DNA from: Clostridia bacterium
Lineage (GTDB): Bacteria; Bacillota; Clostridia; UMGS1883
Direction of reading: 5' to 3'
Length of the DNA stretch: 64,000 nt
NCBI GenBank assembly: GCA_045656645.1
Contig: JAZORN010000103.1
Location: forward strand, 18,319 to 82,318
The notes beneath the pieces are model-generated. The model ran no database searches, had not been told where the DNA came from, and saw only the letters and a list, made by a program, of their open reading frames with translations. Below are positions 21,978 to 54,771 of the stretch, piece after piece (within the stretch, counting starts at the first letter, position 1; every line of letters starts with the position of its first letter). The translations under genes were made by a program, and so were the position numbers.

Positions 21978-22006
21978 ATTTTACTATACATTTTCATAAA
22001 TTTCAA
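21978..22006 (-). promoter_or_regulatory. Sigma-A-like promoter of the mraZ/dcw operon.
   Basis: On the minus strand: TTGAAA (22006-22001), a 17-nt spacer, then TAAAAT (21983-21978). Confidence 0.55.
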
Positions 22007-22188
22007 TAGTTTTTTAAAAATTTTTTAAGTTTATTCTTAATTTTTTCGGCAGTTTTGGTTTTTACCAAAATATGCCGTATAACCGAACTTTTTATACCAT
22101 ATTTTGTGTTTAAAACTTTTTCTTTTTAACACAAAATTTAACAATTAATTTCATAATTATTAAATTTCTTAATATTTTAAAATTTCAC

Positions 22189-22217
22189 TTGCAATTATGC
22201 TCATTTTGTATTATAAT
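22189..22217 (+). promoter_or_regulatory. Sigma-A-like promoter of the tRNA-Pro transcription unit.
   Basis: TTGCAA (22189-22194), a 17-nt spacer, then TATAAT (22212-22217). Confidence 0.55.
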
Positions 22218-22242
22218 TCACAATGTTGAGGCTTTAAATAAA

Positions 22243-22300
22243 GATGCCGCAGGCAGTCTGCGACAACTTTTTAAGTAACTTCAACTAAATAATGACTATT
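22243..22300 (+). repeat. 58-nt direct repeat, copy 1 (leader duplicated upstream of tRNA-Pro).
   Basis: Matches 22561-22618 at 52 of 58 positions. It starts with GATGCCGCAGG, the same 11-mer found in the variable loop and T-stem of the tRNA-Pro gene. Confidence 0.85.
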
Positions 22301-22560
22301 TCGCCCGAAAAGATAACAGCGTAAGCGAAATCTTTTCGGAGAGGAAGAATAAACGGTTGCGTGCAGAGTTCTGCGTTAGCATAACGACGCAAAGCCTACC
22401 TTTATTCTGACGACGTAGCGACGCCTGCTTTGGGCAACACATCTGAGCGCATCCTGCGGATGATACAGCGAGGATTTGTTGGGGCAGCGGTCGACAGATG
22501 GCAAGGCAATTTATTGCCGAAGATAGATGTCGGGCACCGCAACGTGGCGGCATAGCCGAG
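22301..22560 (+). ncRNA. Unassigned, highly structured 260-nt segment co-oriented with tRNA-Pro and carrying tRNA-Pro-derived fragments. Candidate ncRNA, or a degenerate insertion-bearing tRNA copy.
   Basis: It lies between the predicted promoter and the tRNA. Several clean helices are visible: CCGAAAAGAT/ATCTTTTCGG; AGAATAAA/TTTATTCT enclosing a three-way junction TTGCGT[GCAG…CTGC][GTTA…TAAC]ACGCAA; and GGCAA/TTGCC. Positions 22415-22434 match tRNA positions ~19-37 at 19 of 20. Confidence 0.35.
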
Positions 22561-22618
22561 GATGCCGCAGGCAGTCTGCGACAATTGTTTAAAAGACTTT
22601 AACTAAATAATGACTATT
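22561..22618 (+). repeat. 58-nt direct repeat, copy 2, immediately 5' of tRNA-Pro.
   Basis: See copy 1. Confidence 0.85.
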
Positions 22619-22619
22619 A

Positions 22620-22695
22620 CGGGGTGTAGCGCAGCTGGTAGCGCGCCTGCTTTGGGAGCAGGATGCCGCAGGTTCAAGTCCTGTCACTCCGACCA
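22620..22695 (+). tRNA. tRNA-Pro (anticodon UGG), CCA encoded.
   Basis: Manual cloverleaf: acceptor CGGGGTG/CACTCCG, D-stem GCGC/GCGC, anticodon stem CCTGC/GCAGG with loop TTTGGGA, T-arm GCAGG-TTCAAGT-CCTGT, 3' ACCA. Confidence 0.95.
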
Positions 22696-22700
22696 AAAAA

Positions 22701-22732
22701 ACAGTTGGTGCTTTTGCATCATCTGTTTTTTT
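22701..22732 (+). terminator. Rho-independent terminator after tRNA-Pro.
   Basis: Stem ACAGTTGGTGC/GCATCATCTGT, followed by a T7 run. Confidence 0.8.
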
Positions 22733-22895
22733 ATTATTGAAGAGGACTTGAACCTTAAGAAGGCAAACGCCGTTAAGAAAACGATTGATAATCGTTTTTA
22801 GGTGTTTGGTGCGCAGTCCGGTACCGAAATGCTTTAGCATTTGGGTGGGCAAGCAGTCAAGACGCCATAGGCGGCTGTGTCCTGTCACCAAGGGC

Positions 22896-22932
22896 AAAAA
22901 ACAGCACCGACCAAACGGTCGATGCTGTTTTT
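22896..22932. terminator. Bidirectional hairpin terminator downstream of the aminotransferase operon.
   Basis: ACAGCACCGACC-aaac-GGTCGATGCTGT, flanked by an A-run and a T-run. Confidence 0.6.
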
Positions 22933-22958
22933 CATTTGCACAATATTGTTCGTAAAGT

Positions 22959-24239
22959 TTACTTAACGTGCTTTGCAAGAATTTCCTTGAAGCTGTCAAT
23001 ACACTTATTGATATGCACCTCTTCCCAAGAGGGATGAAGGAACAGACATACTGTTTCACTGCGAAGTGAATGTGCCTTCGCGCAGTATGATTTGTCATAC
23101 TGTACTGACTTTTCGTCTGTGTATTCCTTTGACTCAAACGGGAACTTTGTAGAGCCAAAACCATTGTGGTTTTTGTACGCCTCTTCCTCATACGCTTCGG
23201 GCCACTGTATTCCGTAGCAGGGGGTGCCGCCTGCTGCAAGCTCCTTGAGTATTACAGATGCATCACAGTCAAGCACGCTCAGGTCAAGAAGCATCGGATA
23301 CCACCAGTATGCATTCTTTCTCTCCTCCGTGTTTACGGGAAGTGCCTTTATTCCCTTTAAGCCTGAAAATGCCTCGTCATACATTTTTGCATATTTAAAA
23401 CGTCTTGCAAGATTCCAAGAATCAAATCTCTTCATTTCGTTTATACCGATAAGAGATTGCATCTCCGTCATTCTGTAGTTGAAGCCTACTCTTCTGTGGA
23501 TGTAAGGAAGCTTTTCTTCAAGTGCAAGCATATTCATTCTCGCCTTTACGTCATAGCCGTGGTCACGGAATGAACGACATTCCCAACCTGTTTCCTCATC
23601 ATTTGTTACAACCATACCGCCTTCGCCGCCTGTTGTAAAGTGCTTTGACTGACAGAATGAGAAGCAGCCTACGTCACCGATAAGACCTGCCTTGATACCC
23701 TTGTACTCGCCACCGATACACTGTGCACAGTCCTCAACAACTTTAAGGTTATGCTTCTTTGCAATCTCGAGAACGGGGCCCATATCTGCAACAACGCCGT
23801 AAAGGTGTACTACGATAATAGCCTTTGTTCTTTCTGTGATAAGTGCCTCGATACAAGCGGGATCAATTGTATGGTCATCTGTTACATCTGCAAATACGGG
23901 GATAGCACCTGCCTGAACTACTGAAAATGATGATGCAATAAATGAGTATGATGGAACAATAACCTCATCCCCCGGTCCGATATTAAGACTTGCAAGAGCA
24001 ATATGAAGTGCTGCAGTACCGTTTGTGCAGGAGATTGCCATTTTAGCACCCATCCATTTTGCAAACATTTCTTCAAACTCCATACCTCTTTTACCTGTCC
24101 AGTAGCTTACCTTACCTTCTTTAAGGGGATTTGCAATTTCTTCAAAGGTTTCAGGTGCAAACTGAGGCCAACCGGGAAAACCGATTTCCTCAATACCTGC
24201 GCCATTCATTACTATTTCTTTTTCTGCCATTTTTAACAA
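22959..24239 (-). CDS. DegT/DnrJ/EryC1/StrS-family PLP-dependent aminotransferase (426 aa).
   Basis: Fold-type I sugar aminotransferase pattern, including FSFCQSKHFTTGGEGGMVVTN (catalytic Lys retained). Confidence 0.85.
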   Translation of the reverse strand: MLKMAEKEIVMNGAGIEEIGFPGWPQFAPETFEEIANPLKEGKVSYWTGKRGMEFEEMFAKWMGAKMAISCTNGTAALHIALASLNIGPGDEVIVPSYSFIASSFSVVQAGAIPVFADVTDDHTIDPACIEALITERTKAIIVVHLYGVVADMGPVLEIAKKHNLKVVEDCAQCIGGEYKGIKAGLIGDVGCFSFCQSKHFTTGGEGGMVVTNDEETGWECRSFRDHGYDVKARMNMLALEEKLPYIHRRVGFNYRMTEMQSLIGINEMKRFDSWNLARRFKYAKMYDEAFSGLKGIKALPVNTEERKNAYWWYPMLLDLSVLDCDASVILKELAAGGTPCYGIQWPEAYEEEAYKNHNGFGSTKFPFESKEYTDEKSVQYDKSYCAKAHSLRSETVCLFLHPSWEEVHINKCIDSFKEILAKHVK

Positions 24240-29282: not shown

Positions 29283-31214
29283 CTATTTTTTTGCTGTCAT
29301 CTTTTGCATAACAATCATAATTGCCACAAGGCTTATTCCGATTGTATCAGTAACAGCACCCGGATATATCAGTAAAAGTCCGCCTACAAGGCTCAAAATC
29401 CGCTGATACCATGTCATATTTTTAAACAAATATCCCTCAAGCGATGCCGATACTGCAAAAATACCTATCAGTGAGGTTATGCTTATCAGAATAACCTCCC
29501 ACGCTGTGGTGTCAATGAAAAGCATTGCGGGATTAAGTGCAAACACATACGGCACGATAAATGCACCGATTGCAAGCTTCGTCGCAGTAAATGCCGTTTT
29601 CATCGGATTTGCCTGCGCAATCGCCGCACCTGCATATGCCGCCAGTGCCACGGGCGGAGTGAGGTCTGCCACTATACCAAAATAGAATACAAAGAAATGT
29701 GCCGCAATATTCGGAACGCCCATACGCACTAAAATAGGTGCACAGGTTGCCGCCATAATGCAGTAATTTGCTGTCGTAGGAACACCCATTCCCAGAACGA
29801 TGCAGCACAGCATTGTTAAAAACAGTGCAACTATAACCTGACTTCCTGCCAGTGCCACAATACCGTTAATCATTATGTTGGCAAGTCCCGTCATTGTTAT
29901 TGTTCCTGCAATTATACCTGCAACACCGCAGGCCGCTGCAACGGTTATCGTTCCCTGACCGCCCGCTACAAGAGCCTCCCATATTCTTTTGGGAGTTATA
30001 CGGTTTTCCTTGTTAAATATACTTACAACAATAGCCGCAACAATGGCAATTGCCGCCGCATACTGAATAGAACGTGTGCTTGTTCCCACAAGGTAAATAA
30101 GTATTATAAGCGGAAGCAAAAGATATGTCTGCTTAACAAGAGGTAAAAACCTTGGAAGCTCTTCCTTTGTAAGACCTCTTAATCCTTCCTTCTTCGCCTC
30201 AAGATGCACTGTGATGAAAATACCTGCAAAATAGAGCATTGCGGGCAGTATCGCACGCACTACTATATTACTGTACGGCACACCTACATAGTCTGCCATC
30301 AGGAATGCGGCTGCACCCATAATCGGCGGCATAATCTGACCGCCCGTAGATGCAGATGCCTCTGCCGCAGCAGCAAATTCGCCCTTATAGCCTGTTTTTT
30401 TCATAAGCGGAATTGTAACTGAGCCTGAGCCAACCGTGTTTGCCACAGAAGAGCCTGAAACCATACCCTCAAGCGCACTTGCAACAACAGCAACCTTTGC
30501 AGGACCGCCTGAAAACCCACCGACAACGGCGTTTGAAATTTTTATAAAGAAATCGGCAATACCCGTACGTTCTAAAAACGCACCGAAAATAATAAACACC
30601 ACTATAAATTTGGAGCAAACATTGATAGGTGTGGACAAAACACCCTCTTTTCCGTAGAAAAGATAGTGAATAATATAATTAAGCTTGCCCCAGAGGGTTG
30701 GGTTTGATAATCCCCAGATAAGAGCATAAACGACAAAGCAGGATGCTACAATAACGATCGGAAGTCCTACACTTCTTCTGCACACCTCTGCCAGTGATAT
30801 TATTCCTGCAACACCTATTATAATCTGATACCACTCAAAGTTACTGCCTTGCTGAATAATTGTCATAGCGTTTGCCGTATAGTATAAAAACGCGCCACTG
30901 CCGCAAATCATCAGCAATATATCATACCACGGTATATAATTAACCTTCTGAAGTCCTTTTCGTGCAGGATACATAAGATATCCTATAAAAATAATAAATG
31001 CTACAAACGACGTAAGACGGATTTCCTCAAGCCAGCTTGTAAAAAGTGTTACGTAAATACAAAACAAAGAAAACGCCGCTAATATGCAGTTTACCGCAAT
31101 CTTTGCCTTTCCTTCCCAAATCCTGACATTTGACTCACGGTCAAACTTCTGCATAACTGCCTGAAGGTCCATAGCCTCAGCCTCGACAGGATTTTTTCTT
31201 TTACCTGAAAACAT
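29283..31214 (-). CDS. TRAP transporter fused permease (TAXI-type, DctQM-like).
   Basis: Large polytopic protein directly downstream of a TAXI solute receptor gene. The likely start is MFSGKRK at 31214 (RBS AGGAGG). Confidence 0.88.
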   Translation of the reverse strand: MFSGKRKNPVEAEAMDLQAVMQKFDRESNVRIWEGKAKIAVNCILAAFSLFCIYVTLFTSWLEEIRLTSFVAFIIFIGYLMYPARKGLQKVNYIPWYDILLMICGSGAFLYYTANAMTIIQQGSNFEWYQIIIGVAGIISLAEVCRRSVGLPIVIVASCFVVYALIWGLSNPTLWGKLNYIIHYLFYGKEGVLSTPINVCSKFIVVFIIFGAFLERTGIADFFIKISNAVVGGFSGGPAKVAVVASALEGMVSGSSVANTVGSGSVTIPLMKKTGYKGEFAAAAEASASTGGQIMPPIMGAAAFLMADYVGVPYSNIVVRAILPAMLYFAGIFITVHLEAKKEGLRGLTKEELPRFLPLVKQTYLLLPLIILIYLVGTSTRSIQYAAAIAIVAAIVVSIFNKENRITPKRIWEALVAGGQGTITVAAACGVAGIIAGTITMTGLANIMINGIVALAGSQVIVALFLTMLCCIVLGMGVPTTANYCIMAATCAPILVRMGVPNIAAHFFVFYFGIVADLTPPVALAAYAGAAIAQANPMKTAFTATKLAIGAFIVPYVFALNPAMLFIDTTAWEVILISITSLIGIFAVSASLEGYLFKNMTWYQRILSLVGGLLLIYPGAVTDTIGISLVAIMIVMQKMTAKK

Positions 31215-52311: not shown

Positions 52312-52344
52312 AAGACATTTTTCGCATTGAAAAATGTCTTTTTT
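52312..52344 (+). terminator. Rho-independent terminator after tRNA-Arg.
   Basis: Stem AAGACATTTTTC/GAAAAATGTCTT, followed by TTTT. Confidence 0.75.
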
Positions 52345-52520
52345 CAGTTATATTTGCCTGCGGCAAGTTATATTGCTACGCAGTTATATTCGGCAACGCC
52401 GAGTGATATTGTGCTTCGCACGGTTTAATGGCAAATATAATATCACTGAAACAATCAGGTTTCAATAACACTTTTGCTTTGCAAAAATATCACTCTGTAC
52501 GAAGTACAGAATATCACTTA
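52345..52520. repeat. Family-F hairpin array, left arm of a long inverted repeat.
   Basis: Seven short hairpins separated by AGTTATATT / AATATCACT spacers. It is the reverse complement of 54597-54771. Confidence 0.85.
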
Positions 52521-54596: not shown

Positions 54597-54771
54597 TTAG
54601 TGGTATTCCATCTTTGATGGAGTGATATTTTTGCAGCGCAAAAGTGTTATTGCAAACTATGTTTGCAATTATATTATATTTGCCTTTTAACTGTGCGGAG
54701 CACAATATCACTCGGCGATAGCCGAATATAACTGCGAAGCAATATAACTTGCCGTAAGGCAAATATAACTG
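54597..54771. repeat. Family-F hairpin array, right arm of the inverted repeat.
   Basis: See 52345-52520. Confidence 0.85.

Follow-up and report, generated by a model that had tools for sequence, protein, structure and literature searches.

The RtT repeats have been an unexplained curiosity of the Escherichia coli tyrT operon since the late 1970s. As checked on the MG1655 genome, an RtT unit (rttR; tyrT-distal 178-bp repeats; RF00391) opens with canonical positions 59-68 of tRNA-Tyr in antisense orientation, followed by the sense T-stem 5' strand and TTCGA; a scaffold of approximately 68 nt is inserted at T-loop position 58/59, and the unit closes with an 18-19-nt copy of the tRNA 3' end that includes the CCA. 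The units stand in tandem behind the tRNA, and one of them lies upstream of tyrV within the operon.

The same architecture, consisting of a T-loop scaffold, a 5' antisense closing segment and a CCA tail, recurs around a tRNA-Pro gene that we analyzed within a 64,000-nucleotide stretch of DNA (the window). It is found in a structured element that we term module C and in downstream copies of two further elements, modules A and B. Like the RtT units, module C can form a tandem array behind a tRNA (genome G016, 201-nt period), and A and B lie upstream of tRNA-Pro much as one RtT unit lies upstream of tyrV. By this analogy, the arrangement would be a functional analogue of tyrT-RtT-tyrV, and sequence comparison indicates that A, B and C are undescribed repeat families of gut Clostridia attached to tRNA genes in RtT fashion. 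A literature search covering RtT, repeats linked to tRNAs, and small introns returned nothing relevant. Our best explanation of the locus as a whole, to which we assign a probability of roughly 55%, is a tRNA-Pro operon with accreted small (~110-125 nt) structured RNA modules seated in sockets made of gene copies.

All parts of the locus are co-oriented on the forward strand and lie between one promoter and two terminators, with mraZ and a DegT aminotransferase gene as neighbors. The sigma-70-type promoter (TTGCAA-17-TATAAT, 22189-22217) matches 10 of 12 consensus positions and is conserved and syntenic across all sister-species loci. Downstream of it, DR1 (22243-22303) comprises a copy of tRNA-Pro positions 43-53 (22243-22253), the fold-back hairpin CGCAGGCAGTCTGCG (22248-22262) and a copy of the leader; we read DR1 as the probable end remnant of an older unit joined to a leader. 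Module A (22304-22413) separates DR1 from a pseudo-tRNA-Pro 5'-half remnant (22414-22434), which consists of C1 and positions ~19-37 and has G37 as its last base. Module B, a two-domain covarying RNA, occupies 22435-22558 and is followed by a segment (22559-22619) holding a copy of tRNA-Pro 41-53 (22559-22571), a fold-back hairpin (22566-22580) and the second leader copy (DR2, from 22561). The intact tRNA-Pro(UGG) at 22620-22695 is the only tRNA called there by ARAGORN and Rfam; the upstream tRNA copy does not make a complete cloverleaf (RF00005), its T-loop and acceptor 3' strand being absent. The intrinsic terminator hairpin of the tRNA unit (22695-22732) precedes module C (22743-22888), and a second terminator hairpin (22897-22932) closes module C. 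The whole region folds better than shuffled sequences, modestly when taken as one piece (z = -2.8).

Much of this layout had been anticipated. The original prediction, made from the sequence alone, had named a promoter, two leader copies, tRNA-Pro fragments, an intact tRNA-Pro(UGG) and a terminator, and each was recovered at its position. The leader is indeed duplicated, in DR1 and DR2 copies of 58-61 nt with 89% identity, the latter over 61 nt when DR2 is taken as 22561-22621. A DGR-type template/variable repeat was rejected by eye, as differences between DR1 and DR2 are not adenine-specific. The 11-mer GATGCCGCAGG does occur three times, at 22243, 22561 and 22662, the last of these one base beyond the position first given (22661); the chance expectation is 0.04, and three copies appeared in 0 of 100 shuffles. 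A 13-mer, CGCCTGCTTTGGG, is shared between 22422 and 22644. Rfam assigned no family to 22243-22619, either at the gathering thresholds or at E up to 10, and a search of seven further loci at E up to 1 returned nothing for A, B or C. The 260-nt segment between the leaders had been described as unique, which proved incorrect: it is made of two repeated modules with copies elsewhere in the same genome and in relatives. Within 22000-23100, the Gut-1 RNA model (RF01706) gave no match; elsewhere in the window it matches 54700-54771 beside tRNA-Gly, a hairpin-repeat sequence unrelated to the locus.

Each of the three modules has further copies in the genome of the window, next to other tRNAs and to the tmRNA gene, as well as in sister genomes, and one scaffold family is found at at least 10 different tRNAs, each time with a tail specific for its tRNA. 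Their common layout places the module in a socket formed by a partial copy of the neighboring gene, with the intact gene kept alongside; a short fold-back is often present in the socket. Socket breakpoints fall at tRNA position 0/1, in loops or, for some copies, in stems; the sites involved are the D-region, 37/38, the variable loop and 53-59. Two types can be distinguished. In the upstream type, represented here by A and B, an extra leader and tRNA 5' part are broken at the module, and depending on the copy the break falls at 0/1, within the D-region, in the stem or loop of the anticodon arm (37/38 at this locus) or within the T-region; after the module there is sometimes a short fold-back continuation of the tRNA, and then the leader and intact tRNA. 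In the downstream type, represented here by C, the order is terminator, antisense tRNA piece, module, sense tRNA 3' end (59-76 including CCA) and second terminator. The module copies are mostly diverged (70-94%), which we count against regarding recent movement as demonstrated.

Module B provides the largest sample. Its covariance model matches 22430-22544, and a terminal GGCGGC..GCCG extension reaches to 22558. Across the family, 97.5% of cells are paired, compared with 83.6% in shuffles (0 of 500 shuffles were as good) and 27-57% in slid controls, and 11 of 20 pairs have changed on both sides; the RNA also carries invariant unpaired nucleotides. Covariation support is thus strong, and the standing of B as an undescribed structured RNA family of gut Clostridia is well supported. 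We collected 65 copies in 60 contigs of gut Clostridia MAGs (at least 60 contigs in all) and detected B in 28 of 41 relatives. Every copy upstream of a tRNA (18/18) is accompanied by a direct repeat, 8-59 nt exact, of that tRNA's leader and 5' part, and every copy downstream of a tRNA (15/15) by an antisense piece of at least 9 nt. For the remaining 32 of 65, no tRNA lies within 400 nt, and because this is about half of the copies, a tRNA socket is not a defining feature of B. At an AbrB-like ORF, a duplicated RBS and ATGAAAGCNACNGG are followed by B and then by the intact gene; translation through B was rejected there on account of an in-frame TGA. An antisense 9-mer in B's hairpin (22449-22457) matches tRNA 39-47 at chance level only. 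Scans of viral contigs gave 12 hits for a 16-nt B pattern, of which 5 held a real B, one for the C pattern and four for the A pattern. In a Faecousia MAG, B forms 202-nt inverted repeat copies that flank a housekeeping operon.

The other two modules are likewise structured. Module A combines a P1 hairpin with the conserved stretch AGAGGAAGAAU and a closing helix that encloses inner hairpins, and it ends in UUCUGACGA. It is confined to this genus and was tRNA-linked in all 23 copies of a pattern scan, and compensatory changes are seen even between orthologous copies behind tRNA-Leu(AAG). A hammerhead reading of its CUGACGA was rejected, as by eye the topology does not fit. Module C begins with an antisense T-arm (22743-22755), continues into a scaffold with a conserved AAAACGATTGATAATCGTTTT hairpin and ends in a degenerate sense copy of tRNA 59-68 (22879-22888); this tail is complete (59-76) in G003, G014 and G016. 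Both terminal pieces lie beyond the first terminator and were missing from the earlier inventory of tRNA fragments, whose upstream entries were otherwise borne out. The alifold energy of C is -45.4 on the tRNA strand and -27.8 on the reverse, with 34 G-U and 0 A-C pairs, an asymmetry that rules out a reverse-strand RNA with a PBS-like 18-mer. The only Rfam intron hit was a sub-threshold one inside C (group-II-D1D4-1, 16.6 bits, E = 2.9). In all, selection maintains the modules' fold as RNA transcribed from the tRNA strand.

A comparison with relatives, proposed alongside the original prediction, revealed bare to composite loci at the syntenic site, with the inserted modules conserved. Bare promoter-leader-tRNA units are present in G003, G008 and G013, a pseudo-tRNA (1-36) alone in G007, pseudo-tRNA(1-37)-B-leader-tRNA in G022, G002 and G015, A-pseudo-tRNA(1-37)-B in G021, pseudo-tRNA(1-37)-B-leader-A-tRNA in G023, and A-tRNA in G006. 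Sister species thus have an upstream pseudo-tRNA with an intact 5' half (1-37) and B exactly after G37, and they carry A directly before tRNA position 1 or within the D-loop; in G002, the only two substitutions in this half are compensatory changes in the D-stem. G021 has the full pseudo-tRNA 1-37 at the spot where the window has its remnant, and the window copy is the G021-type arrangement minus pseudo-tRNA positions 2-18. Taken together, the readings first offered for the locus are partly supported. A decayed tandem copy of leader plus tRNA is essentially right, except that the insertions are not unrelated filler but conserved, covarying families present at many other genes. The suggestion of a tRNA-derived structured ncRNA is not supported: the structured parts do not come from tRNA, and tRNA origin is confined to the flanks.

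How might such loci arise? We propose that the modules are, or were, mobile. Junctions suggest partial target duplication, fold-back segments and microhomology with the G-run at the 5' end of B (T/GGG); the last two were read by eye on a few dozen junctions, which is no statistical test. Their origin would resemble templated insertion associated with breaks or template switching, and survivors may be limited to copies that left an intact gene alongside. No single insertion model that we tried fully explains the downstream-type socket, and we identified no mobility enzyme: TnpB was found in 2 of 41 relatives and reverse transcriptase in 11 of 41. Once in place, the modules would be co-transcribed with the tRNA. 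The 3' end of A in relatives is exactly tRNA position 1, the predicted RNase P site, and cleavage there would release an upstream A-B RNA; co-processing from one precursor is plausible. The released RNAs could be stable passenger sRNAs that make use of tRNA-like ends, or the modules could be purely selfish elements.

A more ambitious joint reading, which we regard as speculative and rather unlikely, would place A, B and C in a new class of mobile elements, small (~115 nt) structured RNAs that enter exposed loops of stable-RNA genes and ORF 5' ends. Entry would be RNA- or template-switch-mediated and use microhomology with the element's own G-rich 5' end, and the gene would survive because each insertion duplicates part of the target. 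Activity would reside in the conserved two-domain core of B, either as a ribozyme or as a handle used by a host enzyme, and the E. coli RtT repeats would represent this process in degenerate form.

Among the alternatives to accreted modules in gene-copy sockets, the one that survives best, although we still consider it unlikely, treats the modules as SINE-like retro-elements moved in trans by a reverse transcriptase, with variable duplications produced by target-primed reverse transcription or template switching. Target duplications do vary in length, from 13 to ~110 nt, starting in the AT-rich leader and ending in ..TGG, with microhomology to B's 5' GGG, and the snap-back-like fold-back segments and an orientation co-linear with transcription would fit as well. 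However, the modules have no poly-A or other conserved 3' tail, downstream-type sockets misfit a simple target-primed scheme, and B is present in 28 of 41 relatives whereas reverse transcriptase (PF00078) is present in 11 of 41. Because PF00078 is found in so few relatives, reverse transcriptase as a current requirement is unsupported.

We hold it improbable that the modules are leftover attachment-site arms of tyrosine-integrase elements targeting tRNA anticodon loops and T-loops. Classical integrase sublocations within tRNA genes were reportedly described by Williams in 2002, and module junctions coincide with them. One viral contig (IMGVR_UViG_3300024303_000169) supplies a concrete case, as ~150 nt of B plus tRNA-Pro(GGG) 46-76 forms a direct repeat flanking a ~12-kb element that encodes a tyrosine integrase (PF00589, E = 1.5e-31) and carries GGTCAACA arm repeats; the genome of the window has at least 10 integrase genes (tblastn, two query integrases). 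This attachment-site configuration was seen solely in that contig and in none of the genomic B copies, however, and tblastn with two integrases placed a homolog within 2.5 kb of 0 of 65 B copies and none near the window locus, which lies between mraZ and an aminotransferase gene. Scars of site-specific recombination, as first suggested, are unsupported as a general cause. Strand-specific G-U pairs and compensatory changes argue for selection on RNA rather than on protein-binding DNA arms, and we also count against integrase scars the occurrence of one scaffold family at at least 10 tRNAs with tRNA-specific tails.

Distinctly improbable is the idea that B is a very small intron, self-splicing or protein-assisted, and that composite loci are by-products of homing. 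B does sit at the canonical tRNA intron site 37/38, interrupts AbrB-like genes at one and the same codon (after MKATG) and almost always has G as its last base; at one such gene (L102), the frame resumes right after B, which contains an in-frame TGA. Removal of B could, as its junctions read, restore the AbrB-like ORF of L102 but not the tRNA hosts, all of which are truncated and lack the acceptor strand, so that no tRNA would result even from splicing. At ~115-125 nt, moreover, B is far smaller than group I or group II introns and has neither P/Q/R/S or domain V features nor an Rfam match, with Rfam intron families finding nothing on A or B. It also occurs away from 37/38: in the T-loop, variable loop or D-loop, between genes, and in free-standing form, closed by a terminator of its own.

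We give very little credence to the modules as guide RNAs that would direct a nuclease or recombinase through their tRNA-identical tail, whether as omega RNAs of TnpB or IscB or as bridge RNAs of IS110. Omega RNAs do have such a layout, with a scaffold ahead of 13-20 nt that match neighboring DNA exactly, and the 5' antisense and 3' sense pieces of C address opposite strands, as a bridge RNA would. No protein gene consistently adjoins the modules, though, and copies of the upstream type have their tRNA-identical part on the 5' side of the scaffold. Our protein search covered TnpB, through its zinc-ribbon PF07282; PF07282 registered in 8 of 14 control genomes and in only 2 of 41 genomes, all module carriers, which excludes a TnpB omega RNA. 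The idea that a tandem tRNA duplication is simply decaying, its filler random and without module identity, can be dismissed almost outright: the locus does contain partial copies of the tRNA and a second leader, but the filler consists of conserved, covarying families at many loci in many genomes, and neutral decay is thereby already refuted.

Accreted modules in gene-copy sockets have practical consequences. They affect annotation, leaving MAGs with fragments of pseudo-tRNAs, split starts of ORFs and broken contigs, and module B is a candidate ribozyme, protein handle or regulator for biochemical study. This clade also supplies dozens of independent, polymorphic instances of an RtT-like arrangement, encompassing three scaffolds, several tRNA breakpoints and syntenic empty and filled loci in sister species, and as a result the origin and role of tRNA-linked RNAs become directly testable.

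Of the known systems, group I introns in bacterial tRNA anticodon loops resemble B in that a structured RNA interrupts the anticodon loop of a tRNA copy and ends in G; unlike them, B is ~120 nt long, lacks a group I core or Rfam intron match and has truncated hosts. Short repeats and MITEs such as ERIC, BOX, RUP, Correia and REPIN are similarly dispersed, non-coding, transcription-oriented and often near terminators. The modules differ from these in having no terminal inverted repeats or fixed short target duplication, in adopting a multi-domain RNA-like fold with strand-specific G-U pairs, and in being flanked by partial duplications of the target gene. Tyrosine-integrase attachment sites in tRNA genes share the partial tRNA copies with anticodon-loop and T-loop breakpoints and the preserved intact gene, and one viral contig has a B module as its attachment site; antisense fold-backs and duplications of the 5' part, in contrast, are not products of integrase recombination. 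The RtT repeats come closest in architecture, yet there is no sequence similarity: RF00391 (gathering threshold 45 bits), which scores 133-137 bits on the E. coli units, had no match in 22000-23100 (E up to 10) or at any of the seven other loci searched. The arrangement described here involves three scaffolds that are unrelated to one another and distributed over many different tRNA genes and the tmRNA gene, its sockets extend to position 0/1 and the D-, anticodon and variable loops, and B is found at sites without a tRNA as well, at ORF 5' ends and within intergenic repeats.

The promoter predicted for this locus is present (TTGCAA-17-TATAAT, 22189-22217), matching 10 of 12 consensus positions, as are the two direct repeats, which share 89% identity over 61 nt (DR1, 22243-22303; DR2, 22561-22621), and tRNA-Pro(UGG) itself (22620-22695) with the terminator behind it (22695-22732). 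The recurring string GATGCCGCAGG occurs at three sites, with 0.04 copies expected by chance and three reached in 0/100 shuffles, and CGCCTGCTTTGGG occurs twice. The original prediction took the 260-nt segment between the repeats to be unique; searches of the source genome and 40 relatives instead resolve it into two independently recurring modules, A (22304-22413) and B (22435-22558). No Rfam family matches the region 5' of tRNA-Pro(UGG) at E values up to 10. Pieces of tRNA-Pro are present past the terminator as well, where its T-arm recurs perfectly in antisense (22743-22755) and its positions 59-68 recur in sense orientation (22879-22888), ahead of a second terminator; a third block recurring independently in the same genomes, module C (22743-22888), spans them. 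The elements are co-oriented, with a single promoter and two terminators, and are under selection at the RNA level. In both leader copies, a fold-back hairpin (a short tRNA continuation pairing with itself; CGCAGGCAGTCTGCG) and a T-rich stretch give a weak terminator-like score (22248-22262 and 22566-22580), and these hairpins could attenuate transcription before A and before the tRNA.

All three modules are RNA-like folds under selection. Among 40 diverse copies of B, standard pairs occupy 97.5% of cells versus 83.6% in column shuffles, both sides change in 11 of 20 pairs (matched by 0/500 shuffles), and slid controls are only 27-57% paired. Of the module's two domains (5' and 3'), the 5' one is a hairpin; GCAGCGGUC, GGGCACCGCAA and the loop A-NAAG-GA are invariant or nearly so. 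The consensus fold of C (17 copies) reaches -45.4 kcal/mol on the tRNA strand versus -27.8 on the opposite strand, with 34 G-U and 0 A-C pairs; the 5' antisense piece closes it by pairing with the opening 5-7 nt of the tail, leaving the acceptor-strand-plus-NCCA part single-stranded. Module A (12 copies) retains a P1 hairpin, a conserved AGAGGAAGAAU and a closing helix with inner hairpins, and shows compensatory changes also between orthologous copies behind tRNA-Leu(AAG); its strand support is weaker (-26.7 vs -22.8 kcal/mol).

Within the source genome, C-type copies trail tRNA-Pro(UGG), tRNA-Leu(CAG), tRNA-Ser(GGA), tRNA-Ser(GCU), tRNA-Pro(GGG), tRNA-Arg(ACG) and the tmRNA gene. Every one consists of the host gene's own T-arm as reverse complement, the conserved scaffold, and an exact 17-18-nt copy of the host gene's 3' end that runs from position 59 in the T-loop through CCA. 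The layout is the same for a second copy of A, behind tRNA-Leu(AAG), and a second B lies upstream of tRNA-Arg(ACG), within the T-loop of a pseudo-tRNA-Arg (a truncated extra copy, positions 1-53). The assembly has 48 tRNA and tmRNA genes; a partial downstream antisense self-copy of at least 12 nt accompanies 12 of them, and the exact 17-18-nt tail accompanies 9.

Several other arrangements were seen in this genome. Behind tRNA-Leu(AAG), the A copy ends in a truncated tail that lacks its final A and a terminator, and an MNT-HepT-type toxin-antitoxin pair (PF01909 and PF01934; contig C86 3342-3975, locus L002 1753-2386) begins directly after it. Three identical repeats at contig ends (C7 35400-35509, C51 7062-7171, C98 23244-23353) join the B 5' domain to a different 3' domain and are preceded by CGCCCCTGCGAGGTCGTTTC. 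Pseudo-tRNA-Ser copies (40 and 24 nt exact) that lack a large scaffold lie 5' of both tRNA-Ser(CGA) genes (C96 20161-20400, minus strand; C99 ~29300-29560, plus strand), the former closing as a mini tRNA-like hairpin with a consensus promoter in front. Mini-hairpin arrays of the GTTATATT type come after the terminators of tRNA-Arg(CCU) and tRNA-Gly(GCC) in the window (52336-52420, plus strand; 54700-54771, minus strand), the latter interval matching Rfam Gut-1 at 51.8 bits; on contig C38, this repeat also lies behind the tRNA-Pro(GGG) module, past its second terminator.

The flank and promoter are common to the same locus in all sister species, and the content varies. Genomes G003, G008 and G013 have promoter, ~30-nt leader and tRNA; G007 has a pseudo-tRNA(1-36) in addition, and G016 keeps only the last part of B and the fold-back. 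The order in G022, G002 and G015 is leader, pseudo-tRNA(1-37), B, tRNA positions 38/41 to ~50 folded back, leader and tRNA. G021 has this order with A added directly before pseudo-tRNA position 1, and in G014 A lies in the pseudo-tRNA D-loop; G023 carries pseudo-tRNA(1-37), B, leader, A and the real tRNA, and G006 carries A and the real tRNA. The window locus is the G021 form minus pseudo-tRNA positions 2-18, lost between two GTAGCG repeats, which explains the odd string GTAGCGaCGCCTGCTTTGGG. DR1 starts with positions 43-53 and the fold-back hairpin, the same piece that follows B, so that we read it as left over from an earlier unit. The 5' half of the G002 pseudo-tRNA has two substitutions only, a compensatory D-stem change (C11-G24 to U11-A24), hinting that selection acts on the RNA. 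Copies of C are arrayed in tandem in G016, with a period of 201 nt.

Among the genomes searched, which are MAGs of 60-100% completeness, an exact pattern places A in 15 of 39 genomes of the window's genus and 0 of 48 outside it (reversed-pattern control, 0 matches); all 23 pattern-scan copies abut tRNA position 1 or precede a T-stem-3'/acceptor tail. A covariance model detects B in 28 of 41 relatives, at 1-11 copies each, and a strict pattern finds 65 copies on 60 contigs from gut and rumen Clostridia MAGs (Oscillospiraceae, Faecousia, Acutalibacteraceae, Congzhengia, Acetatifactor). Of the 65, 18 stand before a tRNA on the same strand (Pro, Leu(CAA/UAG/CAG), Arg), and in all of them the leader and 5' part of that tRNA are directly repeated (8-59 nt exact) ahead of B. 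Another 15 stand behind a same-strand tRNA (His, Asn, Gln, Ser, Arg, Met, Trp, Pro), each with at least 9 nt of antisense sequence in front of it; no tRNA lies within 400 nt of the other 32. AbrB/SpoVT-like genes are interrupted by B after codon 5 (MKATG), directly behind ATGAAAGCNACNGG (database loci L102 5120-5300 and 90-240, L078, L092). In L102 the frame resumes immediately after B, with a TGA within B; in L092, B is followed by a spacer, a second RBS and an intact AbrB/SpoVT-like gene, a layout that follows the same logic as the tRNA-Pro locus. Away from tRNAs, B also occurs in a purF-like leader, in 200-nt dispersed repeats and as a free-standing copy that has a terminator of its own. 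At L083 and L119, B adjoins 5S rRNA reverse-complement-like sequence (GCTTAACTTCTGTGTTCGGGATGG), the junction again following ..GGGATGG. With junction rules read by eye, the B 5' junction is nearly always ..T(G)GG beside B's own G-run, which on inspection we read as microhomology. In a Faecousia MAG, two inverted 202-nt B-containing repeats (L082 1-202 and 4073-4274; 99% complementary) flank an lgt/M16-peptidase operon, and several contigs of the assembly break at this B-bearing repeat.

The modules would be co-transcribed with tRNA-Pro, and RNase P cleavage at 22620 would free an A-B RNA; A has its 3' end at exactly this predicted site (tRNA position 1) in G006, in G023 and at three tRNA-Pro(CGG) loci. 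The partial tandem duplication, the microhomology and the fold-backs, with a return arm that stops where the module went in (by eye, for example, AGGATGCCGC|GGCAaCCTGCT in G002, G015 and G016), suggest an origin in which a mobile or templated module inserted at a target that was broken or copied.

General integrase linkage is disfavored, as 0 of 65 B copies have a homolog of either of two query integrases within 2.5 kb; the window locus neighbors mraZ and a DegT aminotransferase gene. The exception is a single viral contig, IMGVR_UViG_3300024303_000169 (L056 5776-7364, L058 9600-9830), with a ~12-kb integrative element carrying a tyrosine integrase and GGTCAACA arm repeats. Its direct repeat comprises ~150 nt of B and tRNA-Pro(GGG) positions 46-76, on its attP side a pseudo-tRNA (positions 13-43) carries B in its variable loop, and another integrase, accompanied by a partial tRNA copy (positions 26-76), lies directly upstream. 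This contig shows that a module of this kind can act as an attachment site. Dependence on a resident reverse transcriptase fits poorly with PF00078 in only 11 of 41 genomes, and PF07282, present in only 2 of 41, excludes a TnpB omega RNA. The modules belong to no known intron or ribozyme family in Rfam.

The nearest comparison is with E. coli RtT, for which we used the RF00391 units of MG1655, one of them between tyrT and tyrV. Each RtT unit comprises GGGGAAGGAT, antisense to canonical positions 59-68; AAGGTTCGA, which covers the 5' strand of the T-stem and the first five T-loop bases; a scaffold of ~68 nt; and the last 18-19 nt of tRNA-Tyr. The modules and RtT have neither sequence nor Rfam membership in common. 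The architecture of antisense piece, scaffold and tRNA 3' tail is common to RtT and the modules, and breakpoint 58/59 is common to RtT and the tail junction of C and of downstream A and B copies.
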